From positions 1-59,066 of the forward strand of contig WRNB01000002.1 in NCBI GenBank assembly GCA_009776805.1: 59,066 bases of DNA, read 5' to 3'. Of the stretch, positions 8,475 to 34,639 are shown piece after piece; position 1 is the first letter of the stretch, and the number at the start of each line of letters is the position of its first letter. Both the position numbers and the translations under genes were made by a program. A model generated the notes under the pieces. It worked only from the letters and a program-made list of their open reading frames with translations, was not told where the DNA came from and did not search any database. The DNA comes from Candidatus Bathycorpusculum grumuli (lineage in GTDB: Archaea; Thermoproteota; Bathyarchaeia; Bathyarchaeales; Bathycorpusculaceae).

Positions 8475-9704
8475 CTAATAGTAATAAGTATGTGTTGTGG
8501 GTGTACCTAAGAAATGCTCACACAGATACCTATTTACAGCCCCTACGTCAACATCTGCAAATAGATCAGGTTGAAGCCATTTTGCAAAAGCCAAATACCC
8601 AATTACTGAACGTGCACCATTTCGTGCATTAAAATCACAAACATAAACACGTCCATTCTTCACTGCATCAATATCCTTAAATTGTTGATTATTAAGCACA
8701 GCGTTTCTGGCATTAATAAAATCTTGAGAACTATGACTATTGCTAGAAATCATTACAATAATTACAGCAGGATTTTGTGCAACAATAAATTCCGGATTTA
8801 ACGCAGGATTGTATAATGTAACGTTTTCAGCTATGTTAATTCCACCGCCTTGACAAATAGATAAATCAACATAAGTCCTGTATTCCCCAGAAATGTACCA
8901 ATCCAAGAAGGCAAGATCTTGTTTGTCACGTGGTAAATTGTTTAGTTTGTCTTTGATCTGTTTGTTATAGGACTGTACCCATGTGATATACTCGTTTGCT
9001 CGATCTTCATTACCTACTAGAGCGGATAATTGTTTCACTGTGTAACAGATATCATCTATCTTTGTGTTAGCATTGTATATTTCTTGAGAAGACATTTTTG
9101 ATGGATTAATTGGTTGTGAATCCGCTGAGCTTTCAAGAAAAACCGGTATACCAGCTTTTGTAACTATGTTATAGGTATCTAAATCCGAATACGCAGGGTT
9201 AGAAGTATATCCAAATTGTGAGCTAGCAACTATTAGATCAGGTTCCATTACAAATATCGACTCTGCACTAGCCATAAAGGCCATTGATGCTATAGACGGT
9301 AATGTTTGAAGTTCTGGAGTTACAACAGTATCTGTTCTGGCTATAATTGAATCCTTTGCGCCTAGCAAAAATAGAATTTCTGCGAGGCTATCCTCCATGA
9401 CAATTATCCGCTTTGGTGTATCAGGTAAGGTAATTTTGACACCTGCGCCATCAGTAATTGTAACGGTTTTTGAATCAGAGCTGCTGGATGAAGAAGAACT
9501 AGATTTATTACGTGTGTCGGATGAGCTAGATGAGTTGGATGAGTCATCTGTTGATGAGGAGGGATTGTTGGTAGAAGGGTTTGATGATGATGGCAAGTTT
9601 GTTGAGGATTGTTTGTAGAATTCGTTGTAGACTGCATAGAAGGATACCGATGCTATGATGACAATAAGGGCTAGAGCAATTACTGTTTTGATTTTTGGAC
9701 CCAT
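8475..9704 (-). CDS. ABC substrate-binding protein, cobalamin/Fe-chelate (class III) family, paralogue A1
   Basis: N-terminal TM anchor, Ser-rich linker, ITDGAG...PKRIIV, EPDLIVA, AVKNGRVY. GGAGGTGA precedes ATG 9704. Confidence 0.88.
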   Translation of the reverse strand: MGPKIKTVIALALIVIIASVSFYAVYNEFYKQSSTNLPSSSNPSTNNPSSSTDDSSNSSSSSDTRNKSSSSSSSSSDSKTVTITDGAGVKITLPDTPKRIIVMEDSLAEILFLLGAKDSIIARTDTVVTPELQTLPSIASMAFMASAESIFVMEPDLIVASSQFGYTSNPAYSDLDTYNIVTKAGIPVFLESSADSQPINPSKMSSQEIYNANTKIDDICYTVKQLSALVGNEDRANEYITWVQSYNKQIKDKLNNLPRDKQDLAFLDWYISGEYRTYVDLSICQGGGINIAENVTLYNPALNPEFIVAQNPAVIIVMISSNSHSSQDFINARNAVLNNQQFKDIDAVKNGRVYVCDFNARNGARSVIGYLAFAKWLQPDLFADVDVGAVNRYLCEHFLGTPTTHTYYY

Positions 9705-9850
9705 TTTTTCACCTCCACACACATAGAATTAGTTTTAATTTTCCAAAAATTGGTATTATGATTATTTTCGATCCTACAAAGACTTGGGGTTATGATTGTT
9801 TTTTACTCTCCAGAGATTTAAGGTTTACCATTGGATTAGTCAACAACATA

Positions 9851-12949: not shown

Positions 12950-14059
12950 TTATGGATAGCAGTAGACACCTATTATGGGTGTATCAAAGAATTGTTTGTT
13001 TATTTGCTGTGTTACATCTTCTAAGTCGATGTCTGTGAAGAGTTCTGGGTGAATACATTTTGCCCAATATAAGTAACCAATTATGGCGCGTGGTCCGTTT
13101 CGGGCACTAAAGTCACAAACATATACACGACCATTCTTTACTGCATCCACATTTTGGAGTTTTGGTTGATTAAGTATATCAGTTTTAACTGCAACAAAGT
13201 CATTGGCATCATGTGTGGAGCTAGAAATTAGCTCAATAATCACTGAAGGGTTCTGTGCGACAACAAATTCAGGGCTTAATGTAGCTGAGTACATTAATTG
13301 TTTATTTGCAATATTTACGCCACCAGCCTGATAAATACCTAAATCGCCCCATGTATTGTAGGGGTAGTCATACCAATCAAGAAAGACAGTTACTTGTTGG
13401 TCCTGAGGTAATGCCGCTACGCGGTCTTTGACAATCTTATTGTAAGATTGCGCCCAATTGACATATGCCGTTACTTCTTTTTGGTGTCCTACTATAGAGG
13501 TTAGGTTTTGCATTAAAGAGCATGTATGGTCTATTATTGTTGGGTAATTGTATAATTGTTCTGATGTCATGTCTATTGGATTTGTTAGGGGTTCGGGAGC
13601 GTTTGTGTTTGCAATGTATATGGGTATACCAGCGTTTTGAAGTTGTGGATAAGCACCTTCATTGTAGGTTATCAAGTTGCCAGAAATTATAATGTCGGGT
13701 TCTAGTTCAAGTACTTCCTCAACATTGAGGTAATAGGCATTTTCGCCTACAAGAGGTACGTCTATCATTGATGAGGGTAAAACGACATCGCCTGTTCGCC
13801 CTACTATCAAATTCTCAGCACCCATGCCACACAGAGTTTCTCCAAGACCTGCATCCATGACAATAACGCGTTTTATTGGGAGCTGTACGGTAACGGTATT
13901 GCCGACGCCATCGATAACGGTAATGGTTGTTGGTTTAGTGTTACGGGTAAACAAATTGTGAGATGATCCAGAGGAGTAGAATTCGTTGTAGATTATGTAA
14001 AGTGATGCTGTTGCAATTAAGGTGATAATAATTATATATATTACATGTTTTTTTGTCAT
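12950..14059 (-). CDS. ABC substrate-binding protein, cobalamin/Fe-chelate family, paralogue A2
   Basis: TM anchor; VIDGVGNTVTV, EEVLELEPDII, AVKNGRVYVCDFSARNGPR. Clearly paralogous to 8475-9704 and 30645-31826. Confidence 0.88.
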   Translation of the reverse strand: MTKKHVIYIIIITLIATASLYIIYNEFYSSGSSHNLFTRNTKPTTITVIDGVGNTVTVQLPIKRVIVMDAGLGETLCGMGAENLIVGRTGDVVLPSSMIDVPLVGENAYYLNVEEVLELEPDIIISGNLITYNEGAYPQLQNAGIPIYIANTNAPEPLTNPIDMTSEQLYNYPTIIDHTCSLMQNLTSIVGHQKEVTAYVNWAQSYNKIVKDRVAALPQDQQVTVFLDWYDYPYNTWGDLGIYQAGGVNIANKQLMYSATLSPEFVVAQNPSVIIELISSSTHDANDFVAVKTDILNQPKLQNVDAVKNGRVYVCDFSARNGPRAIIGYLYWAKCIHPELFTDIDLEDVTQQINKQFFDTPIIGVYCYP

Positions 14060-14299: not shown

Positions 14300-15598
14300 G
14301 TGTTACAACAAATGCAGTCCCTTATAAAAAAAGAAGAACAACACTTCATTTACCCAAAATATCAAGACAACTGCATTTCAAACATACCTGACCTACTAAA
14401 AGAAAGCTTTGAAATATACAACAAATCAACAAACAAACTCTACAATCATGAAACAGAAAAAACATGCATAGAACAAAACAAAAAAATAATACTCATAATA
14501 ATAGATGGCCTAGGATACTCCCAATTCCTAAATCAACAAAAAAATGACCCCTTTTTAACAAAACTCACCAATAAAGGCATAGTTCGACCCCTAACAAGCG
14601 TTTTTCCCTCACAAACAACCAACGCCCTAACAACCCTAAACACAGGCCTAACCCCACAAGAACACGGACTCTTCGAATACTTCATCTACCTAAAAAACAT
14701 TGGAATAATAAACGCCCTAAAATGCGAACGCATCAACTCAAAGAAAAAATCCCTCATAGATGAAGACTTTAAACCAAACAATCTCCTCCTATCAAAAGAA
14801 AAAACACTCCATGAAACACTAAATGAAAAAGGCATTAAAACCTATACACATGCACACATAACCAACGCATTTAGCACTTGTTCAAACATAATTTTTCGAG
14901 GCAGCACCATAAAACCAGCATTAAACACATCAGACTCAATCGCAGGATTACGAAAAAACATAGAAGAAAACAAAGACAAAACCGCATACTTTTTCATACA
15001 CCTACCCACCACAGACACTATCGCCCATGAATATGGACCCAACAGCCCTCAATATTACACTGAATTATCAAATATAACATACCAACTACACAGAGAATTA
15101 ATACAGAAATTAGACCCAAAAATAGCTAAAGATACACTACTATTATTAACTGCAGATCACGGTGGAGTAGATGTAGATATAGAAAAAACAGTGTATATAC
15201 CAAAAACAGCCCTACCCCTACAAACCGGAAAAAATCATGAACCAATCGCACCTACAGGAAGCTATAGAGAAATTTTTCTACACATAAAAGAATCAAAGCT
15301 CGTTGAAACAAAATTATGGTTACTTAAAAAAATCGGCGACAAAGCCCAAATAATTGAAACCAAAGAAGCAGCAGAAAAAGGCCTATTTGGCATAGGCAAA
15401 GTTAGCAAAAGCTTTTTTGAAAGAGCAGGAAACCTACTAATTTTACCATACGGTAATGAAACCATATGGTTTGAAGGCCCAAACGAAAGAAGAATTAACT
15501 ACTTAGGACAACATGGAGGACTAAACAGACAAGAGATGATAGTACCCTTTGCAGTTGCTAACCTTAAAAATTTAAGAGAAAAAACAAACCAACATTAA
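14300..15598 (+). CDS. Alkaline-phosphatase-superfamily nucleotide pyrophosphatase/phosphodiesterase
   Basis: IIDGLG, SVFPSQT (nucleophile region), DTIAHEYG, TADHG, GQHGG metal-binding motifs. Confidence 0.85.
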   Translation: MLQQMQSLIKKEEQHFIYPKYQDNCISNIPDLLKESFEIYNKSTNKLYNHETEKTCIEQNKKIILIIIDGLGYSQFLNQQKNDPFLTKLTNKGIVRPLTSVFPSQTTNALTTLNTGLTPQEHGLFEYFIYLKNIGIINALKCERINSKKKSLIDEDFKPNNLLLSKEKTLHETLNEKGIKTYTHAHITNAFSTCSNIIFRGSTIKPALNTSDSIAGLRKNIEENKDKTAYFFIHLPTTDTIAHEYGPNSPQYYTELSNITYQLHRELIQKLDPKIAKDTLLLLTADHGGVDVDIEKTVYIPKTALPLQTGKNHEPIAPTGSYREIFLHIKESKLVETKLWLLKKIGDKAQIIETKEAAEKGLFGIGKVSKSFFERAGNLLILPYGNETIWFEGPNERRINYLGQHGGLNRQEMIVPFAVANLKNLREKTNQH

Positions 15599-16726: not shown

Positions 16727-18040
16727 CTATTTTATGGCGTTAATTATGTCTTCGATGAGTGTTAAAGTACCGTTGAATCCTGTTATAGGGCGGTTTGTTA
16801 AGATGATTTTTTCATGGTAGGGGAAAGATGTAGGGATAAAGTGAGGTATTTTTTGTAGTGTGAGTGAAATGTTTTTTTCGATACTGCTGCCGAATAGTAA
16901 AGTTGGTTTTGTTTTGTTGAGGTAGTCTGTTATTTCGTATTGGTCAGGATTAATAAGTAGATGGGTGTTTGGTAGATTATGTGTTAAATAATTTTTTAGG
17001 GCTTCATAGTTTTTTGTGCCAATTTCTTTTATGCCGATGGTGACCGGTAACAACCCTAGATATTCGTAGAAGAATGTTGTTAAAGCGTAAACTTGTGAGG
17101 TATCTCCAAAAATGGTAAAGGGTGTACCACGGAGGTTGTTGGTGTAGGAGGAGGTTTGGGCGAGGGCGTGGTAGCATTTTTTTCTGACCTGTCGAGCTTT
17201 AGTTTTTATAATTTCGTTGGGTATTTTAAAAAATTCTGTGATAGCCTTGAACCATGTTTCAGAGGCAGATATTCCATAGGGGGCCTGTAAATTTAAATCG
17301 ATGCATGGAATGTTGTGCTCTTTTTCTAGGTAATTGGCTATTTTGTCTCCGTATTCTTCGTTGAGAATTAAGTTGAGTTCAGCTTGGCCGGCTTTTTTTA
17401 TGTTATCGATAGATTCGCCTGCGCATATTGCAGATAGCGTTTGGATGCCTAAGAGTTTGAGGGTTCGTTTAATTTCAGCGATGTCATTTTCCCAATTATA
17501 GTGGAAAATTGTGCTGCCGATAATGTTAACAGTTTGAGGAATTTTTTGTTTATTTTTATTATTTAATAGTTTGTCAAGGATTTTGATAGTGGCGTTTTGG
17601 AATCCGGATGCATATGTTCCTGTAAAGCCTGTACTGTCTATGGCTACGGTTGGAGTTTTAATGTTTGCGTTTTTTATTATTTGTGTTAAATCGTCTCCGA
17701 TAATTGAAGTACCTGAGTGGTTGATAATGCCTATGAGGCTGTGTTGTTTTAGGTCAACATGTTTGAGTGCTTGGGTGACTTTGGGCTCGCTTCCGTATAT
17801 GAAGTCTTGTTCGTCTATGTAAGTGCATGGGAGCCTGGTTTGGCCAAAATAAAAGTTAGAAAAGCATTCATCTGATTCATGTTTAGGATGGGGTGCTAAT
17901 ATGTTTGCCATGTAGGCGGTGTAGAATTTACAGCCTATAGGGCCATTGAGAAGAGTGCATGCTTCTTGAATGCCTTCAAAGGCAGCTATAGCACCTGAGA
18001 GAGAATCAGGTCTGTGGGGTGTAAGAGAGTTATTCATCAT
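16727..18040 (-). CDS. Nitrogenase component-1-like subunit (NifK/NifN/BchB-like, non-canonical)
   Basis: GAIAAFEGIQEACTLLNGPIGC, DFIYGSE, SIIGDDL, VNIIG, WENDIAEIKRTLKLLGI, AELNLIL. Overlaps the upstream fusion gene by 11 bp. Confidence 0.85.
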   Translation of the reverse strand: MMNNSLTPHRPDSLSGAIAAFEGIQEACTLLNGPIGCKFYTAYMANILAPHPKHESDECFSNFYFGQTRLPCTYIDEQDFIYGSEPKVTQALKHVDLKQHSLIGIINHSGTSIIGDDLTQIIKNANIKTPTVAIDSTGFTGTYASGFQNATIKILDKLLNNKNKQKIPQTVNIIGSTIFHYNWENDIAEIKRTLKLLGIQTLSAICAGESIDNIKKAGQAELNLILNEEYGDKIANYLEKEHNIPCIDLNLQAPYGISASETWFKAITEFFKIPNEIIKTKARQVRKKCYHALAQTSSYTNNLRGTPFTIFGDTSQVYALTTFFYEYLGLLPVTIGIKEIGTKNYEALKNYLTHNLPNTHLLINPDQYEITDYLNKTKPTLLFGSSIEKNISLTLQKIPHFIPTSFPYHEKIILTNRPITGFNGTLTLIEDIINAIK

Positions 18041-20186
18041 ATCGCCATCCTTCGATAAAGGGAATTTTTAATTTAAAGTAGAGTTTTTTAGCATAGTCTA
18101 ATCCAGAATTAAAGCCATATACAGGGAGAGTGGGGAAAAAGTCACAAGGGATATTGGCTGTTGTTAGATATCGGGCAGATAAAATAAAGTCTGGATCATT
18201 CAAACGTATAGCGTCCTCCATAAGTTTCGCCTCCGAATGTTTTATTCCCGATTTAGACAAGGGGCTTCCGTCTGATGTAAATATGTTAAAAGTACTAATT
18301 GTGGTTACTTTAACACCTATGTCCTGTAAGGCTAACTGTAGCCAGTCAATGTTAGCACCGTTAGAATTGATTAAGGCTTTTTTTCCTGCGAAAAATGGTT
18401 CTAATTGTTTCTTATCTTTTTCATATGTTACCTGAGCTTCTGTTATGAGTTTTTCAGCTAAGGCTTCTTTGTTGAATTTGCGTGCAATTGTACGTGTAAA
18501 TTCAACGGTTTGTTCAAATCCTATAGGTAGAGGAATTTGCAGTGTTTCGGTTCCGAAGTGTTGATCTAAAAAGTTTGAGAGGTCATGTACCATTTGATCG
18601 TTTGAAAGAGGGAGATTAATTTTTGCTTTTTTAAAGTTTTTTATTTCTTCTATGTTTGTTTGTCTGATGTATCGACAGTTTATTTTTATATTTAATGCAG
18701 TTAATATTTTGTTTACTTCTTTAAAGTTAGGATTTGCAGTAGTAGACAAGTTTTGTTCGCCAATAATGTTTATACCATCATCTGTTGGTCTAACAGTTTT
18801 ATCTATGAATTTTTCGGCGACTAATTTGCAGGCTGTAAGCATGCCTAAATAGAAGTCACCACCTATTACGCCATCTGTGGGTACGTGTATTATTTGCTGT
18901 TTGTTCGTATTTAATTTGGCTGTAAGAGAGTTTATATCGTCTCCGATTAAACCTACTGGGCATGCGGTTATTAGAAAAATGGGTTGTGTTGGAAATCTTT
19001 TTTGTAGGTCTGTCAAAATTTCGTCTAAATGTTTTGTTCCGCCAAATATTACATCTGTTTCCTGCATGTTTGTGCATAAAAGGTTTGATATATAGGGTGT
19101 GTTTAAGTCAGGGAGCGTGCTCTGATGGGAGCAATAGTTGATGTATGCACAACCTTGAGGAGAGTACATTAGGGCAATTGCATCGTTAATTTGACTGATA
19201 ACATTATAAGCACCAGTAAGTGAGCAACCATATAATGGTGGTTTTTCCTTTGGGACAGAAACTTGAATCGCTCTATTTGTTATACTGTTTTTGCAATCAT
19301 CCACGTTTTGAGCAGTTATTTGCTGTAAATTATTACATACACATGTTTGAGGTTGTTGTAGAATTTTTATTTTCTTTGCGCCGTAGCAGAATTCTTGTAT
19401 GAATTCTTCAAGATCCATATCTGATAGTGGTGTAGGGATTACAGGGTTAGAATGATACTCAATGTAATTAGCTATTTTAGAGTAAATATGGGCTAATTCA
19501 GTGTTGGGAGCAAATTCTATGATAGTTTTAGAGGCCAACTCTGCCTGTGGTATAATATCATTATGGGGTATGAAAGCAACTATGGTTGTTCCAATTTTTT
19601 TAGCGAACATTTCCAGTATTTGGCGTTCGTTGTTTATTCCTCGAAGGTTACCTATTATGCCACCAAGTTTTCCATTGGTGGAAGTGAAGCGTTGTAAGCC
19701 TTTGGCTATGTTGTTAGCGGCGTATATGGAGGCTATTTCGCCTGAGGATACAATGTACACTTCATCAGCATAACCGTCTCGCATGGGAACCGCGAATCCG
19801 CCACAGACAACATCGCCTAAAACGTCAAAAAATACGTAATCGAATTGTTGAGTGTCTAATCCTTGGTCTTTGAGAAGTTGAAGAGTTTGTATTATGCCTC
19901 TACCAGCACAGCCTACGCCGGGTTCTGGACCTCCAGATTCAATACATTTTACGTGATTATATCCTGTTAACATAACTGTGTCAAGTGAAACTGTACCAAT
20001 AGTGTTTAGCTGTTCAAGAACTGTCATTTGAGTAAAGCCCCCTAAAAGCAGACGAGCGGAGTCATGTTTAGGATCACACCCTATCTGTAGGATTTTTTTT
20101 CCATTTACTGATAGGGCAGCAATAACATTAGATATAGTAGTAGATTTACCAATCCCGCCTTTTCCGTAAAAAGCTATACCTTTCAA
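18030..20186 (-). CDS. NifH-type Fe protein fused to a nitrogenase component-1-like (NifD/NifE/BchN-like) subunit
   Basis: N-terminus: YGKGGIGKSTT, GCDPKHDS, ESGGPEPGVGCAGRG, DVLGDVVCGGF (both 4Fe-4S Cys). C-terminus: GCSLTGA, SPQGC, ETDVIFGG, ITACPVGLIGDD. TTG start overlaps the upstream TGA (TTGA) after GAGGAGG. Confidence 0.92.
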   Translation of the reverse strand: MKGIAFYGKGGIGKSTTISNVIAALSVNGKKILQIGCDPKHDSARLLLGGFTQMTVLEQLNTIGTVSLDTVMLTGYNHVKCIESGGPEPGVGCAGRGIIQTLQLLKDQGLDTQQFDYVFFDVLGDVVCGGFAVPMRDGYADEVYIVSSGEIASIYAANNIAKGLQRFTSTNGKLGGIIGNLRGINNERQILEMFAKKIGTTIVAFIPHNDIIPQAELASKTIIEFAPNTELAHIYSKIANYIEYHSNPVIPTPLSDMDLEEFIQEFCYGAKKIKILQQPQTCVCNNLQQITAQNVDDCKNSITNRAIQVSVPKEKPPLYGCSLTGAYNVISQINDAIALMYSPQGCAYINYCSHQSTLPDLNTPYISNLLCTNMQETDVIFGGTKHLDEILTDLQKRFPTQPIFLITACPVGLIGDDINSLTAKLNTNKQQIIHVPTDGVIGGDFYLGMLTACKLVAEKFIDKTVRPTDDGINIIGEQNLSTTANPNFKEVNKILTALNIKINCRYIRQTNIEEIKNFKKAKINLPLSNDQMVHDLSNFLDQHFGTETLQIPLPIGFEQTVEFTRTIARKFNKEALAEKLITEAQVTYEKDKKQLEPFFAGKKALINSNGANIDWLQLALQDIGVKVTTISTFNIFTSDGSPLSKSGIKHSEAKLMEDAIRLNDPDFILSARYLTTANIPCDFFPTLPVYGFNSGLDYAKKLYFKLKIPFIEGWRYDE

Positions 20187-21511
20187 TGACTAACCTCCTC
20201 TACAGTAGCTAAAGCTGGTACTACATGGGGAAGAGAAAATGTTGACTTAGAGACCTGTTTCTTGGTTAAATAATTAAGAGCAGATAGAAGGGTTTTTTCG
20301 TCTTTAATGGAGACCGCCCCTTTGTTTTTAAGTATCTTCATTTTTTCTTGAGCTTGCCCTTTTGTGTAATCTCGCAACTCTATCAGAGTTTCATCTAACA
20401 AAAAAACGGGTATACCCTGTTCTATGGCGAAAGTTGCGGCATCCAAATTTTTAATGTTACCAGGACCATATGGAAAAGATGTTACTATTACTAAATCGGC
20501 TTTTTTAATTAATCCAAGATTATCGTTGTGAGCGGATTCACTAATTGGAGACATAGGAGCTTCTGTAACTGTATGTATTTTTAAAAAACTTGTTGTTTCT
20601 TGATCTGTATCTAGCAAGTTTAAAACCCCAACAGTTACATTATAACCATCATCTGTTAAACGTTTCAAAAGTGAACTACCACTACCTGACCCACAAATCA
20701 CATGAATAGTTGAACTACGAAGAGGTACTTCATGATTAACGGATATAGGAATAATATAGGGTGTTTTAGTTATAGAGTTCTGTTTTACAACGGTATCTAT
20801 GTTGAAGATTGTTTTGATGTTTTCGCTTGTTAAAACGTCTGTTGTTCCAGCAGCAACTATTTTTCCATTTTTTAACAATACCAGAGAATCACAGTAACGA
20901 GCAGCAAGATTGAAATCATGAAAAACACCTATCACTAAAAGTTTTTTGTTGTCACATAACTGTTTGAGTAAATCCATTATTTCTAGCTGGTTTGCTACGT
21001 CAAGAAATGTAGTAGGTTCATCAAGAAGAAGAACTTGTGGCTCTTGAGCTAATGCTCGACTGATAATGATTCGTTGCCGTTCTCCTCCACTTAATTCAGT
21101 TATTAATCGATCTTGTAGGTGTAATGTTCCAGTGTATGTCATAGCTTTTTTTGCAATAGCAACATCTTTTTCACTTTCCATAGCAAAACGAGAGAGGTGG
21201 GGTGATCGCCCCATCAGTACAACATCAAGTGCAGTAAAGCTAAAAGCGATTGCTGCACCTTGGGAGACCACAGCCATTTTTTTAGCTATGTCTACAGCTT
21301 TTAAGGTGTATATGTCATCATCTTCGAGAAGTATAGTACCTGTTTTTGGTTTAAGGGTGTGACTTATGCTTTTGAGTAAAGTTGTTTTTCCTGAACCATT
21401 GGGTCCAAGAATGCCTACAAATTGTCCAGTTTGAAATTGGAAACTAATATCTTCTATGATTTTAATAGAGTCATAGTAACAGTTTATATTATTGATTTTT
21501 AAGTGTACCAT
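20183..21511 (-). CDS. BtuD/FecE-type ABC ATP-binding protein with C-terminal extension
   Basis: GPNGSGKTT, LSGGERQR, LLLDEPT, HDFNLAARYCD; about 185 extra C-terminal residues beginning HVICGSGSG. Confidence 0.92.
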   Translation of the reverse strand: MVHLKINNINCYYDSIKIIEDISFQFQTGQFVGILGPNGSGKTTLLKSISHTLKPKTGTILLEDDDIYTLKAVDIAKKMAVVSQGAAIAFSFTALDVVLMGRSPHLSRFAMESEKDVAIAKKAMTYTGTLHLQDRLITELSGGERQRIIISRALAQEPQVLLLDEPTTFLDVANQLEIMDLLKQLCDNKKLLVIGVFHDFNLAARYCDSLVLLKNGKIVAAGTTDVLTSENIKTIFNIDTVVKQNSITKTPYIIPISVNHEVPLRSSTIHVICGSGSGSSLLKRLTDDGYNVTVGVLNLLDTDQETTSFLKIHTVTEAPMSPISESAHNDNLGLIKKADLVIVTSFPYGPGNIKNLDAATFAIEQGIPVFLLDETLIELRDYTKGQAQEKMKILKNKGAVSIKDEKTLLSALNYLTKKQVSKSTFSLPHVVPALATVEEVSH

Positions 21512-21521
21512 GTTTGTTGCC

Positions 21522-22601
21522 TCATGATGTATCTACTTTTTTCTTTCTTCGCATAAGATAGAGGAAAAATGGTCCGCCACATACTGCGGTTACTACACCT
21601 ACGGGTAATTCTGTTGGGGCTATTACGACTCTTGCCAAGATGTCGCATAGTACAAGGAAAATGGCACCCATTACAGCGGATGCGGGGATTAGAATTCTGT
21701 GATCAGGTGAGAATATCATACGAGTTACGTGGGGAATGATTAAGCCTACGAAGGCTATTAAGCCGCTAATTGAGACTGCAGCGGCGGTCACAAAAGCACT
21801 GGCTATGAGGAGAATTTTTTTCATTTTTTCTAAATCTACGCCTAAATGTGTAGCTTCAGATTCACCTAGTGCTAATAAGTTTAGATCACGTGAGAACATA
21901 TAGATAACTATGGAACCAATTATTATGAAGGGAAGAGCACTCCAGACGTCAGCCCATTCCGTGTATGAGAAGCTGCCCATAAGCCAGAAGGCTGATCTTC
22001 GAAATTGTTCAGGGAAAAGGGAGTGATAAGCGTTGACGATTGCACCAAGCAGGATGCTTACGGCGATGCCTGAGAGAAGTAGAGTTTGTACAGGCACTTT
22101 AGAGCCTACTCTTGAAATTGCATAAACGAAAAATACTGTTAATAGACAACCTATGAATGCAAAAATTTGCATTGTGTTTATGCCAATTATTGTTACGCTA
22201 AGACCTACAATAACAGCTGTGGTGGCCCCTAAGGCTGCTCCTGATGAAGCACCTATTGTGTAGGGGTCTGCCATTGGGTTTCTAAATAGGCCCTGATAGG
22301 CTGCGCCTGCAATAGCTAAGGCGGCTCCTGCGAGTGCGGCGCATAAGGCTCTTGGAAAGCGTACTTGTAAAATTAGTGCTGTGTCAACAGTTGAAACTGG
22401 ATAACTAAATAGTCGGTTGAGACCAGGAGTGTTTGTGAGAAATACTTTGATTATATTAGAAAAAGGAATAGAAACATAACCTATACTTATGGATAATACA
22501 ATAGAACATGCTAATATTATAAAGAGTGTAAATAGTATGAGTGCCCATTTTTGGGTTTTGCGAGTTGCATTTGATTTTGATGATTTACTTTTATTTAACA
22601 T
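21522..22601 (-). CDS. btuC: BtuC/FecCD-type ABC permease
   Basis: VRFPRAL, QGLFRNPMADPYTIGASSGA, LGESEATHLGV, IAFVGLIIPH, ELPVGVVT. Confidence 0.9.
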   Translation of the reverse strand: MLNKSKSSKSNATRKTQKWALILFTLFIILACSIVLSISIGYVSIPFSNIIKVFLTNTPGLNRLFSYPVSTVDTALILQVRFPRALCAALAGAALAIAGAAYQGLFRNPMADPYTIGASSGAALGATTAVIVGLSVTIIGINTMQIFAFIGCLLTVFFVYAISRVGSKVPVQTLLLSGIAVSILLGAIVNAYHSLFPEQFRRSAFWLMGSFSYTEWADVWSALPFIIIGSIVIYMFSRDLNLLALGESEATHLGVDLEKMKKILLIASAFVTAAAVSISGLIAFVGLIIPHVTRMIFSPDHRILIPASAVMGAIFLVLCDILARVVIAPTELPVGVVTAVCGGPFFLYLMRRKKKVDTS

Positions 22602-22634
22602 CAGTTTTGCTCCTTTGAAAAAAAGAGAAGAAGA

Positions 22635-23579
22635 CTATGTGCTTCCAAAAATTTCTGGATGCATGGTTTTTGAAATTTCTTCTAAAGCATCAATAATTCT
22701 TGGTCCACCTCGTGAATATATGCTGTCACTGCCTTGATTGTAGACTTTATGATTTGCAACTGCATTAATACTAGACCAGCCTGGACGTCCGCTGATGTCG
22801 CTGTAGAGTAAAAGAATTATATCAGGGTTTTTGGATATGACGGCATCGGAGCTTATAATGGGGTAGGGTGTTATAGCGTCATAGAAGATGTTTGTGCCGC
22901 CAGCTAAAGTAACAAGGTCATCTAAGAAGCTGTTTGGACCCACAGCCATTAATGGATCATCAGATATTTCGATGTAAACTTTAGGTTTAACTGTTATACC
23001 TGCGACTTTATCTGTAATAGCATCAACGCGTTTTTGGAGGTTATCTACTAGTTTTGTGGCTTCACTGGTATGACCTGTTATTTTACCCACGAGTTCAATG
23101 TTATCAAATACATTGTTGACGTTTTTTGGGTTTAACACTATTACGGTGTAGCCCATGGAGCGTAGTTTAGCGGCTGCTTCATCACTTGCTCCACCGCCAA
23201 ATGCCATAACTAAGTCAGGTTCTAAAGCAATTATAGGCTCTATCGCGGGCATCCAATAATTACCAATACTGGTAATAGTACCCTCAGCAATTCCCTTAGG
23301 AACGTTAGGTGGGTAATCACAAAAATCTGTAACTCCAACAACTTGATCACCTGCACCAATCGCAAATAAAACCTCAGTGCTACTTGGTGCTAAAGAGACA
23401 ATTCTTTGAGGCACAGAAGAAATTGTTACTTCGGTACCATCATCATCGAATATAGTTATTGGACCTTTACTATTATTGTTGTCTACACCGCCATTAAAGA
23501 ATACTATAAAGGCTGCAGCTATAATAACGACAAGAACTATTGCTATGATTAAATACATCTTTGATTTTTGCATGTTCAC
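22635..23579 (-). CDS. btuF: BtuF-like cobalamin/Fe-chelate substrate-binding protein, paralogue B1
   Basis: PQRIVSLAPSSTEVLFAIGAGDQVVGVTDFCDYP, EPIIALEPDLV, SRGGPRIIDALE. Confidence 0.85.
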   Translation of the reverse strand: MNMQKSKMYLIIAIVLVVIIAAAFIVFFNGGVDNNNSKGPITIFDDDGTEVTISSVPQRIVSLAPSSTEVLFAIGAGDQVVGVTDFCDYPPNVPKGIAEGTITSIGNYWMPAIEPIIALEPDLVMAFGGGASDEAAAKLRSMGYTVIVLNPKNVNNVFDNIELVGKITGHTSEATKLVDNLQKRVDAITDKVAGITVKPKVYIEISDDPLMAVGPNSFLDDLVTLAGGTNIFYDAITPYPIISSDAVISKNPDIILLLYSDISGRPGWSSINAVANHKVYNQGSDSIYSRGGPRIIDALEEISKTMHPEIFGST

Positions 23580-24814: not shown

Positions 24815-26401
24815 CTAGTAAATGTATGTTAGAGTTATTGTTGTTTCAGTTGTTTGGGTGTCAGTGTTGCATATTTGAATTTTTATGGTTCCAGGAAGAA
24901 CTGGGAAATATGCTGTTGCGTTGGTACCTGTAGTTATTGTTTGATTGAAGATTAGTTCATTGTATTTGTATGATACTTGTGTGTAGGTTGTGGTAGAGGT
25001 TGAGTTAACTTGAATTTCCATGTATCCGGCATACGCTACGGTTTCGTTAAAGATTGTTGTTGCTGTAGTTGCATTTTGGGTGTATGTGGTATTGTTTAAG
25101 AGTATGTGTGATTCTTTGAGGTCTATGATGTTGGTGTAATTGTTGAGTTTGTCGGTTAAAGATGCAATTTGATCTTGGTAATCAGATATCTGTGCTTCAT
25201 AATTAGATATCTCACTATTAAGATTGTTAACTTGGTTTTGCAGGTCGGCAATTTGTGAACTAAAGTCAAATATCTGTTCTTCTAGAGCTGTTCTGTTTTG
25301 TTGATCGATAAAGACTACTGTAGTAAAGCTTGAGATGAGTATAATACATATTAGGCCTAAAGCAAATGTTGTATTTTTTGTTTTAACAACTTCAACTTTT
25401 CGCTCCTCACGCTTTTGTTCATTATTTGATGGTTCAAGCCAATTTCTTGATTTAAACACCGATTTGTTAACCAATTTTACTTTAAGTGCATCCTCATAAG
25501 GACACATTTCCACACATCTTGCGCAAAGCATACACTGAGAAGTGTTAATTTTTCCACCTTTTTGTTCATAGACCTCGTTGACCTGTACAGGACAGACACG
25601 TTTGCAGACACCACATTTGGTACATTTTTCTTCATCTTTATCGATGTATAGAAAAGGTAATTTTCTAAAGATTTTAAACTGGTTAAGAGATGCTATAGAA
25701 GCTCCTGCTGGACAGAAACGACACCAAACCCGACGAACAAAAAACGCTCCGATTAACGTGACTGCAACAAAAATGACTGCAAAAATTTGTCCAGGAGTTG
25801 CAGATATAAAAGTTGTAATGTCCCCTATATATGGGTAACTAAAGTTGAGACTGCCTAATTTTAGTTGCCCAATCCAAGGCACAATAAAGGGCACAAGTGG
25901 TTCTATTATCAGGCTATAGGAACGAAAAGGTCCAGCCAATCGTTGAGCCATTACCACTGCAACAGCTAAGTTAGAAGGAGGTCTTAGCAACCACAATATA
26001 ATGGGTAAAAACAGAAACATTCCCAGGATTATGTATCTACCTTTATGAAGAGCCGTGTTTAATTCAACTGGAAGAGGTCGGTGACGAATTTTAAGAGTTT
26101 TTCTTACCACATTTTCTACATCCATAAGGAAAGCAAATGGACATATCCAACCACAAAAAAATCTGCCCAAAAAAAGCGATGCCACAAACCAACCAACGAG
26201 TACATAGAGGAGAGGTATAGAAGGTTTGATGGAGAACAAATAAAATAAAGCAAATAAACTAACGATTTGAATAATAAATCGTAAAAAAGACACACGCATA
26301 GTACGATTTCGCACCCAAATCATAACTGAGAGCACACCTGCTGCTCCAAGTCCCGCTAACACAATAAGCCTAGACATATCGCTAAATAATGCTTCAAACA
26401 T
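24815..26401 (-). CDS. NapH/MauN/NosR-C-like membrane polyferredoxin, fused to a TM-coiled-coil extracellular domain
   Basis: Two CX3CP motifs (FCGWICP, WCRFCP) and two ferredoxin motifs (CTKCGVCKRVCP, CMLCARCVEMCP), then a TM helix and heptad coiled coil. Confidence 0.85.
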   Translation of the reverse strand: MFEALFSDMSRLIVLAGLGAAGVLSVMIWVRNRTMRVSFLRFIIQIVSLFALFYLFSIKPSIPLLYVLVGWFVASLFLGRFFCGWICPFAFLMDVENVVRKTLKIRHRPLPVELNTALHKGRYIILGMFLFLPIILWLLRPPSNLAVAVVMAQRLAGPFRSYSLIIEPLVPFIVPWIGQLKLGSLNFSYPYIGDITTFISATPGQIFAVIFVAVTLIGAFFVRRVWCRFCPAGASIASLNQFKIFRKLPFLYIDKDEEKCTKCGVCKRVCPVQVNEVYEQKGGKINTSQCMLCARCVEMCPYEDALKVKLVNKSVFKSRNWLEPSNNEQKREERKVEVVKTKNTTFALGLICIILISSFTTVVFIDQQNRTALEEQIFDFSSQIADLQNQVNNLNSEISNYEAQISDYQDQIASLTDKLNNYTNIIDLKESHILLNNTTYTQNATTATTIFNETVAYAGYMEIQVNSTSTTTYTQVSYKYNELIFNQTITTGTNATAYFPVLPGTIKIQICNTDTQTTETTITLTYIY

Positions 26402-29115: not shown

Positions 29116-30219
29116 TTATTTACTAAATAGTTCTGGATGGAGCATATTTGCAATATCCTCTAAAACATCTATGAATCTTGGTCCGCTTCGCGAATAAGCA
29201 TCATAATTGTATGGACTATAAACTCGCCCGTTTGCAATTGCGTTAATGTTTGACCAACCTGCACGTGCTTGAAGACTATTGATAGATGTTGATGTAATAA
29301 TTACATCAGGATTTTTAGCAATAACTATCTCGTTACTCACCTGAGGGTAAGCGGCGTTTATATCACCAAAAACGTTCACGCCACCAGCCAAAACAATAAG
29401 GCTATGTAAAAAACTGTCCGCACCTGCAGCATATGATCCAGTCAAATAACAAACATTGGGTTTATCTGTAATGTCTTCAACTTTAGTTGTTATAGCATCG
29501 ATGCGCGCTTGAAGGCTGTTTATTGTTGCTGCAGCTTTATCAGCATTACCAGTTGCTTTGCCAATAACGTCAATATTATTGAGTATTTTGTCGACACTAG
29601 TGGGGTTTAGCACTATTACAGTGTATCCTAAGTCACGTAGTTTATATGCTGCATCATTGCTTGCACCATCACCACTTGCAAAAATCAAGTCAGGATTTAG
29701 GGCCATTATAGGCTCTATTGCCGGTTGCCAATAATTACCGACGGTACTCATGTTTCCTGCTGTGATCCACGCTTTAAAGTTGTATGGGTAATTACAATAA
29801 TCTGTAACTCCGATAACTTGGTCACCTGCACCGGCAGCAAATACTGTTTCAGTTATACTGGGTGCTAAGGAGACGACACGTTTAGGAGCTGAGGTTATAG
29901 TTACTTTAACACCCTCATCATCAGTTACAGTTACGGGGAAAGCGGGAGTTGTGTTTTGGTTGGTGTTGGTATCAGTATTACTTGTTGATGTGCCAGAGCT
30001 TTCTTTGTTTTCTGAGTTGGCATTGGTTTGTGTTGGTGATGAGATGGGAGTTTTTGCAGAAGTTGATGGTGAGGTTTGAGTTTGGCCAGATTGTTGTGTT
30101 GGCGATTCAGAAGTGGGAGCGTTTGGGGATGCAATGTATTCGGTATAGATAACATAGGTTGCGGCAGATGCTATTAGAGCAATAAGGACAATTGCCACTA
30201 TTGTCATGCTTTTATTCAT
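29116..30219 (-). CDS. BtuF-like substrate-binding protein, paralogue B2, with Ser/Thr linker
   Basis: PKRVVSLAPSITETVFAAGAGDQVIGVTDYCNYP, GNYWQPAIEPIMALNPDL, SRSGPRFIDVLE; close paralogue of 22635-23579. Confidence 0.87.
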   Translation of the reverse strand: MNKSMTIVAIVLIALIASAATYVIYTEYIASPNAPTSESPTQQSGQTQTSPSTSAKTPISSPTQTNANSENKESSGTSTSNTDTNTNQNTTPAFPVTVTDDEGVKVTITSAPKRVVSLAPSITETVFAAGAGDQVIGVTDYCNYPYNFKAWITAGNMSTVGNYWQPAIEPIMALNPDLIFASGDGASNDAAYKLRDLGYTVIVLNPTSVDKILNNIDVIGKATGNADKAAATINSLQARIDAITTKVEDITDKPNVCYLTGSYAAGADSFLHSLIVLAGGVNVFGDINAAYPQVSNEIVIAKNPDVIITSTSINSLQARAGWSNINAIANGRVYSPYNYDAYSRSGPRFIDVLEDIANMLHPELFSK

Positions 30220-30644: not shown

Positions 30645-31826
30645 TCACGGATAACAATAAGCACCCACGCTAGATACACCGAAAAATTGTTGATTTAATT
30701 GTTGACTTACAACATCCGGATTAACATCTACAAATAGATCAGGTTGAAGCCATTTTGCAAAATACAAATAACCAATTACTGCACGTGTCCCACCTCGAGC
30801 ATTAAAATCACAAACATATACACGCCCATCCTTCACAGCATCCACACCCTGAAAATCAGGACGACCAAGTACGTCATTACGAGCAGCAATGAAATCATCG
30901 ACATTATGAGTAGGGCTGAGAATCAATTCAATAATTACCGCAGGATTTTTTTCAACAACAAACTCTGGACTTAATGTAGGTGAATAACTCGTTTCGTTTT
31001 CTGCAATATTAATACCTCCACCTTGATAAATACCTGATATAACAAAAGTTGAATATGGATAGCTGTACCAATCAAGAAAAACTGTAGGTTGGTCTTCACG
31101 AGACAATGTAGCTACACGATCTTTAACAAGAGTATTGTATGGTTGCACCCAATTAACGTATGCAGTTACTTGTTCTTTGTGTCCCACCACATCAGTTAAA
31201 TTTTGCATTAAAGAACAAGTATAATCCACTATTGTTTCCATAGCATACAATTCTGCAGAGGTCATTTGAGCAGGGTTTTTTGCTGGTTGAGGTTCAGTTG
31301 TATCGGCGATAAATATAGGTATGCCCTCACCTGTCAACAGATCATAGAGTTCAGTGTTGTAAGCTATCATTGAGTCAGAAATTATAATGTCAGGCTCTAG
31401 TTCAAGAATTTTTTCCACACTAGGTGAATAGGAATCAGTTCCTACAACGGGCACATTCAAAATTGATGGGGGAAAAGTTGCGTCAGTTGTTCGTCCAACG
31501 ATTAAATCTTGGCAACCCATGGCGCATAAGAGCTCTGTTAAAGCACCATTTAGGCTAACAATACGTAACACTTTATCAGGTACGGTAACAGTGCGGCCAG
31601 CAGCATCAGTAACGGTAGTGCCGGATGAGTCAGAGAATTTCTTAGCTAACGGACTATTGGCAGAGTTGGTTGGTGAAGATGGAGTAGACGGTTGTGTGAA
31701 AGAAGGCTGTTTATCAGATGAGAAAGGAGCGGGGCTGGATGTGTAAAATATATTGTAAGCAACGTAAAAAGTGACTACTACAATTAAGGCAATGAACACA
31801 GTGGCTATTATGGTTTTTTTATTCAT
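30645..31826 (-). CDS. ABC substrate-binding protein, cobalamin/Fe-chelate family, paralogue A3
   Basis: TDAAGRTVTVPDKVLRIVSL, EKILELEPDII, AVKDGRVYVCDFNARGG. Confidence 0.88.
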   Translation of the reverse strand: MNKKTIIATVFIALIVVVTFYVAYNIFYTSSPAPFSSDKQPSFTQPSTPSSPTNSANSPLAKKFSDSSGTTVTDAAGRTVTVPDKVLRIVSLNGALTELLCAMGCQDLIVGRTTDATFPPSILNVPVVGTDSYSPSVEKILELEPDIIISDSMIAYNTELYDLLTGEGIPIFIADTTEPQPAKNPAQMTSAELYAMETIVDYTCSLMQNLTDVVGHKEQVTAYVNWVQPYNTLVKDRVATLSREDQPTVFLDWYSYPYSTFVISGIYQGGGINIAENETSYSPTLSPEFVVEKNPAVIIELILSPTHNVDDFIAARNDVLGRPDFQGVDAVKDGRVYVCDFNARGGTRAVIGYLYFAKWLQPDLFVDVNPDVVSQQLNQQFFGVSSVGAYCYP

Positions 31827-32994: not shown

Positions 32995-33854
32995 TGATCA
33001 CCAACCTTTTCACCTGTTTGTTCAATAAAAACATCCTCCAAATTTGATTCCCGAATAATCACCGTTTTCGCTTCCGAAGACAACCCTTTAACATAATCAT
33101 TTGCAGCCTCTCGATTAGCAAAAAATTGATAATGAGTCTCTTTATTATCAGTAAGAATTTCAACAACTGTTGACCCCACTTTTTCACGAAGACCAGTAGG
33201 AGTATCTACAGCAATTAATTGCCCATGATGCATAATTCCAACACGATCACACAAAACCTCCGCCTCCTCAATATAATGAGTAGTAAGAAAAATTGTAGTA
33301 CCATCTTTGTTTAAACGCCGCACAAAATCCCATAAACGACGTCTGGTCTGAGCATCCAATCCAACAGTTGGCTCATCCAAAAACAACAACTTGGGCGCAT
33401 GAAGAAGACTACAAGCAATAGCTACCTTCTTTTTCATACCACCCGAAAGAGCATCAATTAATTGATTAGCACAATCTGCTAGCTCAATGTACTCTAACAA
33501 TTCTGCAATACGCTTCTTACGTTCAGAAGAACTCAAGTGTTGTATACGAGCATGAAACTCCATGTTCTCCAGAGCAGTTAAATCACGATCCAAACTCAAA
33601 TGCTGCTGAACAACACCTATCTCCTTTTTCACCTTAGCCGGCTCAGTTACTACATCATATCCACCAACAGAAACACGACCCGAAGTTGGACGCGTTAAAG
33701 TGGTCAACACACGAATGGTAGTTGTTTTTCCAGCACCATTAGGCCCTAAAAATCCAAAAATTTCACCCTTACGAACACTTAAATTCAAATTATTAATAGC
33801 CTTAACAGAACCATATTCCTTGCAAAGATTTTCAGTATAAATACAATCTATCAA
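32991..33854 (-). CDS. ABC exporter ATP-binding protein (DrrA/NodI-like)
   Basis: GPNGAGKTTT, LSGGMKKK, FLDEPTVGLD, LTTHYIEEAE. Confidence 0.92.
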   Translation of the reverse strand: MIDCIYTENLCKEYGSVKAINNLNLSVRKGEIFGFLGPNGAGKTTTIRVLTTLTRPTSGRVSVGGYDVVTEPAKVKKEIGVVQQHLSLDRDLTALENMEFHARIQHLSSSERKKRIAELLEYIELADCANQLIDALSGGMKKKVAIACSLLHAPKLLFLDEPTVGLDAQTRRRLWDFVRRLNKDGTTIFLTTHYIEEAEVLCDRVGIMHHGQLIAVDTPTGLREKVGSTVVEILTDNKETHYQFFANREAANDYVKGLSSEAKTVIIRESNLEDVFIEQTGEKVGDQ

Positions 33855-34639
33855 ACACTACCCTCCAATTTAAACGGCAAATGTTTTATATCAAAATTTT
33901 TCAAAGCCTCTGTAACCGCAGCCTTGGTAGCAAAACCAATTAACTCACCTATTTTAGTATGTCCACCAGTATGCTTGATTACTATATCAGGATTTACACC
34001 TGAAACAACAATCATACTATCAGTTCCTGTACCAGTAGCTTGCACCTGCGGCATATAAGAACTCTTATAATCAAAATCTTGCAACGCAGCAGTTTTAGCC
34101 TCTGTAGCAGACATTATAGCCCTAGCCATAGCACCCACAGTCAAAGTCACATTAGTTAACAAAATAATGTTTATAGTACCTGACATTAACTTCATATGAG
34201 TTTCATGTTCAACCCAGTTACCAGCATCTACACCCATACGCAAAGCATTATTACGTGCGCCACCCGTTGCAATACAACAAACATGAAAATCTCCATAGGT
34301 TTTCTCACAAACCGACACGGCCTCCATATTTACACCTGTACTTAGAAAAATAAAATCCCTTCGCTGAAGACCTAAAGCACTAGGAAACTGTTTCTTAAAT
34401 TTCTCATATCCCTGTAGAGACATATGCCGCGTTGATAAAGGATCTGGAACAAATATATTTCCTACGTTACGGACTTTTTGTAATCCATCCATAGTTGATA
34501 GAACTTGACGACGCTCATTAAATGAGATAAGAGTCAAGTTAAGTGATACATCTTCATACGTTTGATATACAACACGAGCATTTACTTCTTTAAATTGAAG
34601 ATCTATAGGAATTTCTTTCAATGTTACATGTTTACTCAT
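33851..34639 (-). CDS. cbiZ: Adenosylcobinamide amidohydrolase CbiZ-like
   Basis: STGVNM, ATGGARNNA, GTINIILL, ATEAKTAAL, ATGTGTD. Confidence 0.85.
   Translation of the reverse strand: MSKHVTLKEIPIDLQFKEVNARVVYQTYEDVSLNLTLISFNERRQVLSTMDGLQKVRNVGNIFVPDPLSTRHMSLQGYEKFKKQFPSALGLQRRDFIFLSTGVNMEAVSVCEKTYGDFHVCCIATGGARNNALRMGVDAGNWVEHETHMKLMSGTINIILLTNVTLTVGAMARAIMSATEAKTAALQDFDYKSSYMPQVQATGTGTDSMIVVSGVNPDIVIKHTGGHTKIGELIGFATKAAVTEALKNFDIKHLPFKLEGSV

Follow-up and report, generated by a model that had tools for sequence, protein, structure and literature searches.

A fused NifH–NifD-like reductase with a predicted single interface [4Fe-4S] cluster, encoded beside a corrinoid-type importer in Candidatus Bathycorpusculum grumuli

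The window analyzed here is a 59,066 nt stretch of contig WRNB01000002.1 (GCA_009776805.1) of the bathyarchaeon Candidatus Bathycorpusculum grumuli, numbered on its forward strand. Two overlapping genes on the minus strand encode a NifH-type ATPase and two Oxidored_nitro subunits side by side, and the pair thus belongs to the nitrogenase superfamily in the broad sense, the nitrogenase-like (NFL) enzymes, a small set of ATP-driven, very-low-potential reductases. The two genes probably specify a fused NFL reductase with a 3+1 interface [4Fe-4S] cluster, three of whose cysteine ligands lie on one subunit and the fourth on the other, acting in a corrinoid or tetrapyrrole context. NFL enzymes with a single [4Fe-4S] cluster are already known, and their recognition from ligands is routine. 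The distinctive features here are the fusion itself, the NifEN-type 3+1 site, an aspartate at the first ligand position, a family-specific pocket cysteine, and the setting among corrinoid-uptake genes.

The first gene (P0001; 18030..20186), identified from its open reading frame and Pfam matches, codes for a 718 residue protein with three parts: a NifH-like ATPase/reductase (H) domain (residues 1–266; 19389..20186), a low-complexity linker of ~50 residues (residues 267–316; 19239..19388), and a NifD/NifE-like catalytic (D) domain (residues 317–718; 18033..19238). Pfam assigns Fer4_NifH (PF00142) to residues 4–266 (E 3.6e-98) and Oxidored_nitro (PF00148) to residues 321–673 (E 1.1e-58). The second gene (P0002; 16727..18040) overlaps the first by 11 nt and codes for a NifK/BchB-like (K) subunit of 437 residues, with Oxidored_nitro spanning residues 15–436 (E 2.3e-72). 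The H domain contains the P-loop YGKGGIGKS and both of its own [4Fe-4S] ligands, Cys93 (19908-19910) and Cys128 (19803-19805), which together with Cys37 and Cys81 are invariant in the 93 fused homologs compared. It matches NifH structures in the PDB at E 3e-90, and scores 352.7 bits on the NCBIfam nifH model (cut-off 394) and 341 bits on CfbC (cut-off 402). The architecture is common to at least 93 full-length homologs, and the fusion is therefore not an assembly artefact. All genes and residues described to this point, and the ligand and pocket residues below, are encoded on the minus strand. Residue counts refer throughout to these 93 fused homologs and to 89 homologs of the K-like subunit; members of the two sets are 28–76% identical.

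Three cysteines of the D domain occupy interface-cluster positions. Cys321 (LYGCSL; codon TGC, 19224-19226) corresponds to NifD Cys62 and NifE Cys37, Cys346 (SPQGCAY; TGT, 19149-19151) to NifD Cys88 and NifE Cys62, and Cys409 (ITACPVG, in a CPxGLIGDD motif; TGC, 18960-18962) to NifD Cys154 and NifE Cys124. These equivalences come from a HMMER alignment to Azotobacter vinelandii NifD (1fp4_A), with which a MAFFT alignment including NifD and NifE from nif operons agrees, and they bear out the original prediction, which had located the three cysteines by eye at these same codons. All three are invariant (93/93). Across 50 sequences that are 28–72% identical, the D domain has only 16 invariant columns, three of them these cysteines, and so the pattern is not one of chance in a set this divergent.

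The K-like subunit contributes one canonical cysteine. Alignment with NifK and NifN of nif operons places Cys37 (GPIGCK; TGT, 17930-17932) at the middle position, that of NifK Cys95 and NifN Cys44, where cysteine is invariant (89/89). At the first position, equivalent to NifK Cys70, stands Asp12 (PDSL; 18005-18007), and at the third, equivalent to NifK Cys153, stands Ser109 (NHSG; 17714-17716), just as had been read from the letters. The first-position column holds Asp in 81 of the 89 homologs and Cys in three. The third holds Ser in 41, Pro in 41 and Cys in six, with Ser found in the Bathyarchaeia clade and Pro elsewhere; given this variability, the third position is not a ligand. One K-like homolog, P0175 from a Candidatus Tectomicrobia genome, keeps Cys at all three NifK P-cluster positions. 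Unlike the other members, it may represent the P-type state of the ancestor, or else a subclade whose cluster is larger, and it suggests that the family probably descends from an ancestor of the P-cluster type.

Structural predictions are consistent with these assignments. In AlphaFold2 models of the D domain (mean predicted local distance difference test score, pLDDT, 86.3; predicted template modelling score 0.86) and of the K-like subunit (pLDDT 90.3), each ligand sits at a strand-to-helix junction, as in NifDK. Cys321 immediately precedes the helix at residues 22–30 of the D-domain model, and Asp12 lies at the N-terminus of the helix at residues 13–22, as a true ligand would. Foldseek template modelling (TM) scores for the D domain are 0.73 with NifE, 0.69 with NifD and 0.63–0.68 with MarD; the K-like subunit matches BchB (TM 0.83/0.86, root-mean-square deviation 2.7 A) and NifK (TM 0.80). 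Taken with the conservation, the ligands make it likely, at a good level of confidence, that just one [4Fe-4S] cluster sits at the D-K interface, with Cys321, Cys346, Cys409 and Cys37 as its ligands.

The best reading of the same ligands is that a P-cluster, FeMoco (the iron-molybdenum cofactor) and an L-cluster would all be absent. The six-cysteine P-cluster set of the Mo, V and Fe nitrogenases (NifDK, VnfDK and AnfDK) is complete on the alpha side (3/3) and reduced to one of three on the beta side. The segment KINLPLSNDQ, which the original prediction had put at the FeMoco-ligand position NifD Cys275 as lacking cysteine, begins at residue 522, and both alignments set its Ser528 (18603-18605) on that residue, which is a cysteine in NifE too. 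In the 93 homologs this column holds Tyr, Thr, Asn, Ser or Ile and never Cys, and in the MAFFT alignment with NifD and NifE the family holds S, T, N, A, G, E, D, Y or H there. The region of the second FeMoco ligand, NifD His442, is deleted in the fused family. A carbide-containing L-cluster or FeMoco requires NifB, and no NifB was found in the whole 2.29-Mb genome (97.6% complete), where the top TIGR01290 score is 19.1 bits against a cut-off of 343.65. A search of the same genome found neither NifDK nor a second NFL locus. The missing NifB, Cys275 and His442 together exclude FeMoco and L-cluster as far as sequence can, so the earlier expectation that FeMoco is lacking holds. Nor did alignment with NifD, NifE, NifK and NifN reveal a full set of P-cluster or FeMoco ligands hidden by misalignment by eye. 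The predicted enzyme has ligands for just one small iron-sulfur cluster and cannot be a nitrogen fixer.

Two additional cysteines map to the region where a cofactor or substrate would lie; neither these nor the conserved Asp12 had been flagged by the earlier reader. Cys504 (18675-18677), in a family-specific N-C-R-F/Y motif, is kept in 91 of the 93 homologs and aligns to A. vinelandii NifD Ala251, a column that holds S, A or G in NifD and NifE. HMMER maps its surroundings to the V250-A251-Q252-W253 strand of NifD, which we take to lead to the FeMoco side of the subunit in the MoFe structure. Cys681 (18144-18146) adjoins the deletion of the His442 region. Its column is Cys in 35 homologs, Tyr in 20, Thr in eight, His in six and Val in five, with Cys confined to the Bathyarchaeia clade and Tyr, His, Thr or Val in most other members. 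Both residues fall on the side of the fold where NifD carries FeMoco. Metallo-tetrapyrroles are classically ligated axially by Cys, Tyr or His, and the occurrence of these residues at column 681 is a suggestive pattern at most. Given the near-invariant Cys504 and the clade-specific Cys681, the original prediction of a single interface cluster stands for its 3+1 core and is slightly overstated in admitting that cluster only.

Gene context points toward corrinoids or related tetrapyrroles. Directly upstream of the fusion gene, in the same direction, is a BtuFCD-type importer (20183..23579, minus strand) comprising a substrate-binding protein (Peripla_BP_2; 22635-23579), a FecCD permease (21522-22601), and a 442 residue ATPase with a C-terminal extension (ABC_tran; 20183-21511), the top NCBIfam match of which is the corrinoid ATP-binding cassette (ABC) transporter ATPase PRK09536. 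The ATPase gene ends in a TGA that shares bases with the TTG start codon of the fusion gene (TTGA), and GAGGAGG stands 8 nt upstream of this start; btuFCD and the fusion gene are translationally coupled. This operon lies within an island (8475-42327) that encodes five Peripla_BP_2 (BtuF-like) proteins (8475-9722, 12950-14059, 22635-23579, 29116-30219 and 30645-31826), CbiZ (33851-34639), CobN (34661-38395), ChlID (40330-42327) and a membrane polyferredoxin (24815-26401); both CobN and ChlID score above the NCBI cobaltochelatase cut-off. The island also carries two FecCD permease plus ATPase sets and ABC-2 exporters. Another contig of the genome clusters HemB, CbiX and five corrin-type methylases, which indicates an early-cobalt-insertion corrin pathway. 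Since these de novo genes lie on a separate contig, the island and its CobN/ChlID chelatase are additional to them.

Similar contexts recur among homologous pairs of fused (HD) and K-like genes. A Methanolobus locus reads cbiZ-btuF-btuC-btuD-HD-K-cbiK. In a bathyarchaeon whose HD protein is 59% identical (L089), btuFCD-HD-K is followed by an ABC-2 exporter. On a thermophile-type contig the gene after btuFCD-HD-K encodes an a,c-diamide synthase, which lies above the CobB cut-off and reaches 552 bits on CfbB (cut-off 560). The btuFCD-HD-K order is the same in L089, L091 and L093. Another lineage has cobN, ABC-2, chlID, a SPASM radical S-adenosylmethionine (SAM) gene and HD-K, beside btuF, btuD and btuC, and FecCD-type transporters adjoin HD-K in four Methanomassiliicoccales loci. 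In Tepidibacter the neighbours encode a DUF4430 protein, a beta-propeller surface protein, a prenyltransferase-repeat protein and MoxR/VWA proteins, which presumably resemble B12-binding and chelatase-like modules. A radical-SAM gene upstream of HD in locus L092 was considered as a NifB-like candidate and set aside, as its product is of the SPASM type (PapB, AhbD or NirJ-like).

Because BtuFCD, CbiZ, CbiK or CobN chelatase, and a,c-diamide synthase genes adjoin the archaeal pairs, a corrinoid or tetrapyrrole is an evenly balanced proposal for the substrate in the archaeal clades, and the link to corrinoid uptake and salvage genes shortens the list of candidate substrates. Candidate reactions are reduction of a ring double bond, metal-centred reduction between Co(II) and Co(I), and reductive demetallation. 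If the corrinoid link is true, anaerobic salvage of B12 or tetrapyrroles would gain a new ATP-dependent step through this enzyme. A more specific and rather doubtful version is that HD-K is an ATP-driven corrinoid reductase acting on the metal, taking Co(II) to Co(I) through the interface [4Fe-4S] cluster. The enzyme would act on cobinamide or cobamides brought in by import, or on cob(II)yrinic acid a,c-diamide, with Cys504 and the Cys/Tyr/His at column 681 contacting the corrin metal. The Co(II)/Co(I) couple lies near -500 to -600 mV, beyond ordinary ferredoxin. Such a role would explain the wiring to BtuFCD, CbiZ, CobN/ChlID or CbiK, and a,c-diamide synthase, and would make the enzyme the long-missing anaerobic counterpart of CobR. 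Supply of Co(I) fits the CobB, CobN and CbiZ neighbours; as a supply for adenosylation it is weakened by the genome, in which searches for PduO-type and CobA-type adenosyltransferases found neither family. Methanocaldococcus jannaschii, in the control set, likewise lacks both.

From the ligand pattern, conservation, fold, absence of NifB and gene context, we infer the cluster type, an electron path and a class of substrate. Two H domains would dimerize, forming an inter-subunit [4Fe-4S] site at Cys93 and Cys128, with each H domain tethered to its NifD/NifE-like domain by the floppy linker. The H dimer would bind MgATP and dock over the D-K interface, where Asp12 of the K-like subunit is predicted to neighbour the interface cluster at the first-ligand position. 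Low-potential electrons would then pass singly through that cluster straight to an organic or metallo-organic substrate. The substrate would sit in the D-side cavity in which NifD holds FeMoco, as in DPOR, COR and CfbCD.

Several points weigh against this reading of the fused reductase. First, a 1:1:1 stoichiometry of H, D and K gives one H2 dimer per D2K2. Homologs with two H domains in the fused chain exist and support an H2 unit per D-K half as a working arrangement; the single-H form would share its H2 unit between the D-K halves or alternate it between them. Second, the genome has a corrin pathway, and the enzyme is thus not obviously needed for de novo B12 synthesis. Third, bacterial homologs at ~35% identity, from Clostridium tetanomorphum, Peptococcaceae, and a 727 residue homolog on a GCA_030145245.1 contig (L095), have FAD oxidoreductase, ABC exporter and amino-acid ABC transporter genes as neighbours. 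The corrinoid link may therefore hold only for archaeal subclades, and the fused family may not have one single function. Fourth, the cluster type is predicted from the ligands. Asp12 is itself ligand-like in its conservation and could replace Cys37, add to it, or alter the cluster. Fifth, the Bathyarchaeia clade also conserves Cys371, Cys504 and Cys681 of the D domain and Cys72, Cys206 and Cys289 of the K-like subunit, and a second simple site may exist there.

The fourth point leads to the alternative that the interface cluster is not a plain four-cysteine cubane and that Asp12 is a true ligand, either in a DPOR-like set of three Cys and Asp, with Cys37 relegated to a hydrogen bond or the second sphere, or as a redox-switchable fifth ligand. 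The Asp (81/89) or Cys (3/89) at this position, its place on the NifK Cys70 column, and its location at a helix N-terminus all suit such a role, and in DPOR an Asp does ligate an NFL [4Fe-4S] cluster (PMC13474568). Moreover, the cryo-electron microscopy model of holo-NifEN describes NifN Cys44, the equivalent of Cys37, as hydrogen-bonding rather than as the fourth Fe ligand (PMC13031127). However, Cys37 is conserved more strictly (89/89) than Asp12, and the DPOR Asp occupies the middle position rather than the first. We consider ligation by Asp12 unlikely.

The fifth point can be extended to a larger or second Fe-S centre built from non-canonical ligands, which would be either an 8Fe cluster of the P type or an additional cluster within the pocket. 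Candidate ligands are Cys371 and Cys72, which occupy symmetry-related positions, Cys504, Cys681, Asp12 and Ser109. Ten cysteines are co-conserved in at least 20 HD/K pairs of the Bathyarchaeia clade, Cys504 (91/93) and Cys72 (78/89) are widely kept, and P0175, with its three NifK-type cysteines, again recalls a probable P-type ancestor. Beyond the Bathyarchaeia clade, however, Cys371, Cys681, Cys206 and Cys289 give way to Ser, Tyr, Ala or Val. In 9p1x_A, a methanogen NifD, the Cys371 position is likewise Cys while the three canonical cysteines are kept, so a cysteine there is not necessarily a cluster ligand. Half of the family has Pro at the third K position, and the genome lacks NifB. A larger or second centre is therefore distinctly improbable.

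Much less probable still is that HD-K, like NifEN, is a scaffold or maturase on which a complex cofactor made elsewhere resides transiently, instead of an enzyme that reduces a substrate. The ligand pattern and the top structural match of the D domain are indeed NifE-like. But the L-cluster cysteine of NifE at the Cys275 column is missing, the genome has no NifB, and it offers no NifDK or other NFL to receive a cofactor, while the neighbouring genes serve transport and tetrapyrrole metabolism rather than Fe-S assembly. A scaffold of the NifEN type was rejected on the missing L-cluster Cys and NifB. That the pair is a decaying or non-functional nitrogenase remnant with lost ligands, as its patchy presence in the genus (4/19 genomes) might suggest, is scarcely credible, since the frames are intact and translationally coupled, the fold predictions are confident, and the ATPase motifs and four ligands are invariant from Bathyarchaeia to Clostridia, across hundreds of millions of years of divergence.

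The preferred reading, a fused reductase with one 3+1 cluster, sets the pair apart from the named NFL families, membership of which was judged by the curated NCBIfam cut-offs, ligand columns and partner genes. All curated Nif, Bch and Cfb hidden Markov models score far below cut-off, and the pair thus belongs to none of these families; nifD gives 121.8 bits against 653.55 and nifK 66.5 against 427.3. NFL enzymes with an assigned or proposed function comprise only DPOR, COR, CfbCD, MAR, ISR and Nfa (PMC13474568). The closest ligand match is NifEN, whose O-cluster is bound by NifE Cys37/62/124 and NifN Cys44 (PMC13031127). The 3+1 columns are exactly the same, which bears out the resemblance drawn by the original prediction, and NifE gives the top TM-score of the D domain. 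In contrast to NifEN, the NifE L-cluster cysteine and the NifB and NifDK partners are absent, nifE (117.8 vs 505 bits) and nifN (42.5 vs 327 bits) fall well short, the reductase is fused to the alpha-type subunit, and the context is transport and tetrapyrrole genes rather than nif.

DPOR (BchL/BchN-BchB; ChlLNB) shares with the pair an ATP-driven NFL design, a single interface [4Fe-4S] cluster and three alpha-type cysteines, and it reduces a tetrapyrrole held in a cavity. BchB is the nearest structural match of the K-like subunit, and DPOR_BchB is its top NCBIfam model (132.1 bits, cut-off 490). The DPOR cluster is, however, bound by three BchN cysteines and an Asp at the middle BchB position (PMC13474568), whereas the middle position here is Cys37 and the conserved Asp is at the first. 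The likeness to DPOR that the original prediction drew is thus sound for the alpha-type cysteines and fails for the fourth ligand. BchN (27–32 vs 420 bits) and BchL (219.8 vs 345 bits) are also below cut-off, the K-like subunit lacks the C-terminal extension of BchB, and the host is no phototroph. The models of COR (BchYZ) stay below cut-off too, with BchZ at 65.3 (cut-off 529), BchY at 15.6 (425) and BchX at 176 bits (331).

CfbCD (Group IV-B), the Ni-sirohydrochlorin a,c-diamide reductive cyclase of F430 synthesis, is an archaeal NFL that uses a [4Fe-4S] cluster alone to act on an amidated metallo-tetrapyrrole, and the H domain scores almost equally on CfbC (341 bits) and NifH. CfbC and CfbD stay associated in a 1:1 complex (PMC13474568), an arrangement that an H-D fusion would mimic. 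Unlike the pair described here, in which a K-like partner is always encoded, CfbD is a homodimer without a K-type partner that ligates its cluster symmetrically (PMC13474568). Scores on CfbD are only 28–39 bits (28 for the D domain; cut-off 268), and CfbC too stays below its threshold of 402. To our knowledge, Bathyarchaeia of this genus are not methanogens. The isethionate reductase IsrHDK (Group IV-F) and Group VI NflHDK resemble the pair in being predicted from ligand counts to be [4Fe-4S]-only enzymes; they keep at most four of the six P-cluster cysteines and are predicted to have no L-cluster or FeMoco (PMC13474568). Isr differs in having one Cys on D (Cys88) and three on K (NifK-70/95/153), the mirror of the 3+1 arrangement here, as well as an IsrB radical-SAM partner and a sulfur-metabolism context; no radical-SAM gene is present in the operon here. 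Group VI, by its description, consists of highly divergent proteins that are not fused and have many flanking radical-SAM genes. The methylthio-alkane reductase (MAR) MarHDK (Group IV-C) and NifHDK share the two-component fold: MarK is the top PDB profile match of the K-like family (E 1e-44), and NifD and MarD are among the top fold matches of the D domain. MAR combines a full P-cluster with an L-like cluster, the latter ligated by MarD Cys270 and His429, and needs MarB (PMC13474568); the six-cysteine P-cluster, carbide-containing cofactor and need for NifB or MarB of these two systems are all absent here.

Fused homologs occur in Bathyarchaeia (up to 76% identity), including termite-gut metagenome-assembled genomes and Candidatus Bathycorpusculum, and beyond them in Methanolobus, Methanosarcina, Methanomassiliicoccales, Tepidibacter, Clostridium, Chloroflexota and Acidobacteriota. 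A K-like partner is encoded downstream of the fused gene in every locus examined. A contig scan with the fusion alignment, which used two NifH motifs, recovered mostly ordinary nifHDK operons, which supplied the NifD, NifK, NifE and NifN references aligned above; only 11 of the 80 loci proved to be true fusions. The distribution is patchy: of 19 genomes belonging to the genus, four carry the locus, and the 12 other genera of the order lack it. Within the genus, one genome (G008) carries two copies of the fused NFL, and two others (G007 and G014) have instead an unfused NifH plus a D-type protein that is only 24% identical to the one here. Tandem NifH-NifH-D-like fusions of ~1,080–1,100 residues (P0063-P0082, P0094 and P0099; loci L023:2627-5884 and L094:8001-11303) contain two complete H domains, each with P-loop and both cluster cysteines, and are followed by a separate K-like gene; this form is a single-chain Fe-protein dimer tethered to the catalytic subunit. 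A Peptococcaceae metagenome-assembled genome (L002:7492-10828) has a fused HD-K, then a second, unfused Oxidored_nitro pair and a separate NifH gene.

A literature search found no functional study of the fused family. A genomic survey lists a NifH-NifD/E fusion in Methanomassiliicoccales, Methanosarcinales and Methanomicrobiales (PMC11237513), and a 2026 Chemical Reviews article on NFL enzymes does not mention fusions and names uncharacterised clades as the main gap of the field (PMC13474568). The H-D and H-H-D fusions fix the stoichiometry of reductase to catalytic subunit and could give stable complexes for structural work.

The linker between the H and D domains contains four cysteines, Cys267, the Cys282-Val-Cys284 pair and Cys298. 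The original prediction had suggested that this CVC...C motif might bind an extra metal; the motif is present, and the metal site was rejected, as CVC is not found in relatives. In the family alignment, the column of Cys282 holds P, S or A and that of Cys284 N, K or R; the relatives read TAINN, PPLNN, SPVNN or TIVNN, and CVC is unique to P0001. Cysteine occurs in 44 of the 93 homologs at Cys267 and in eight at Cys298, the only cysteine of the motif to recur, in the nearest relatives. The linker is rich in Q, P, N, T and S and poorly aligned and conserved, and the D-domain model has pLDDT values under 50 at its N-terminal end. With CVC unique and the linker of low complexity and poorly conserved, a metal site there is unsupported.

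Two minor features accompany the operon. The C-terminal extension of the importer ATPase is ~180 residues long, and the archaeal corrinoid ABC ATPase PRK09536 is likewise long; Pfam MJ0874 (PF27219) matches this region in homologous ATPases of loci L089 and L092. Divergently adjoining the btuFCD-HD-K operon is a gene of the type I phosphodiesterase/NPP family (14300-15598, plus strand). The same divergent gene is present in L089 (4967-6259), and as the HD proteins are only 59% identical, its pairing with the operon appears to be conserved.

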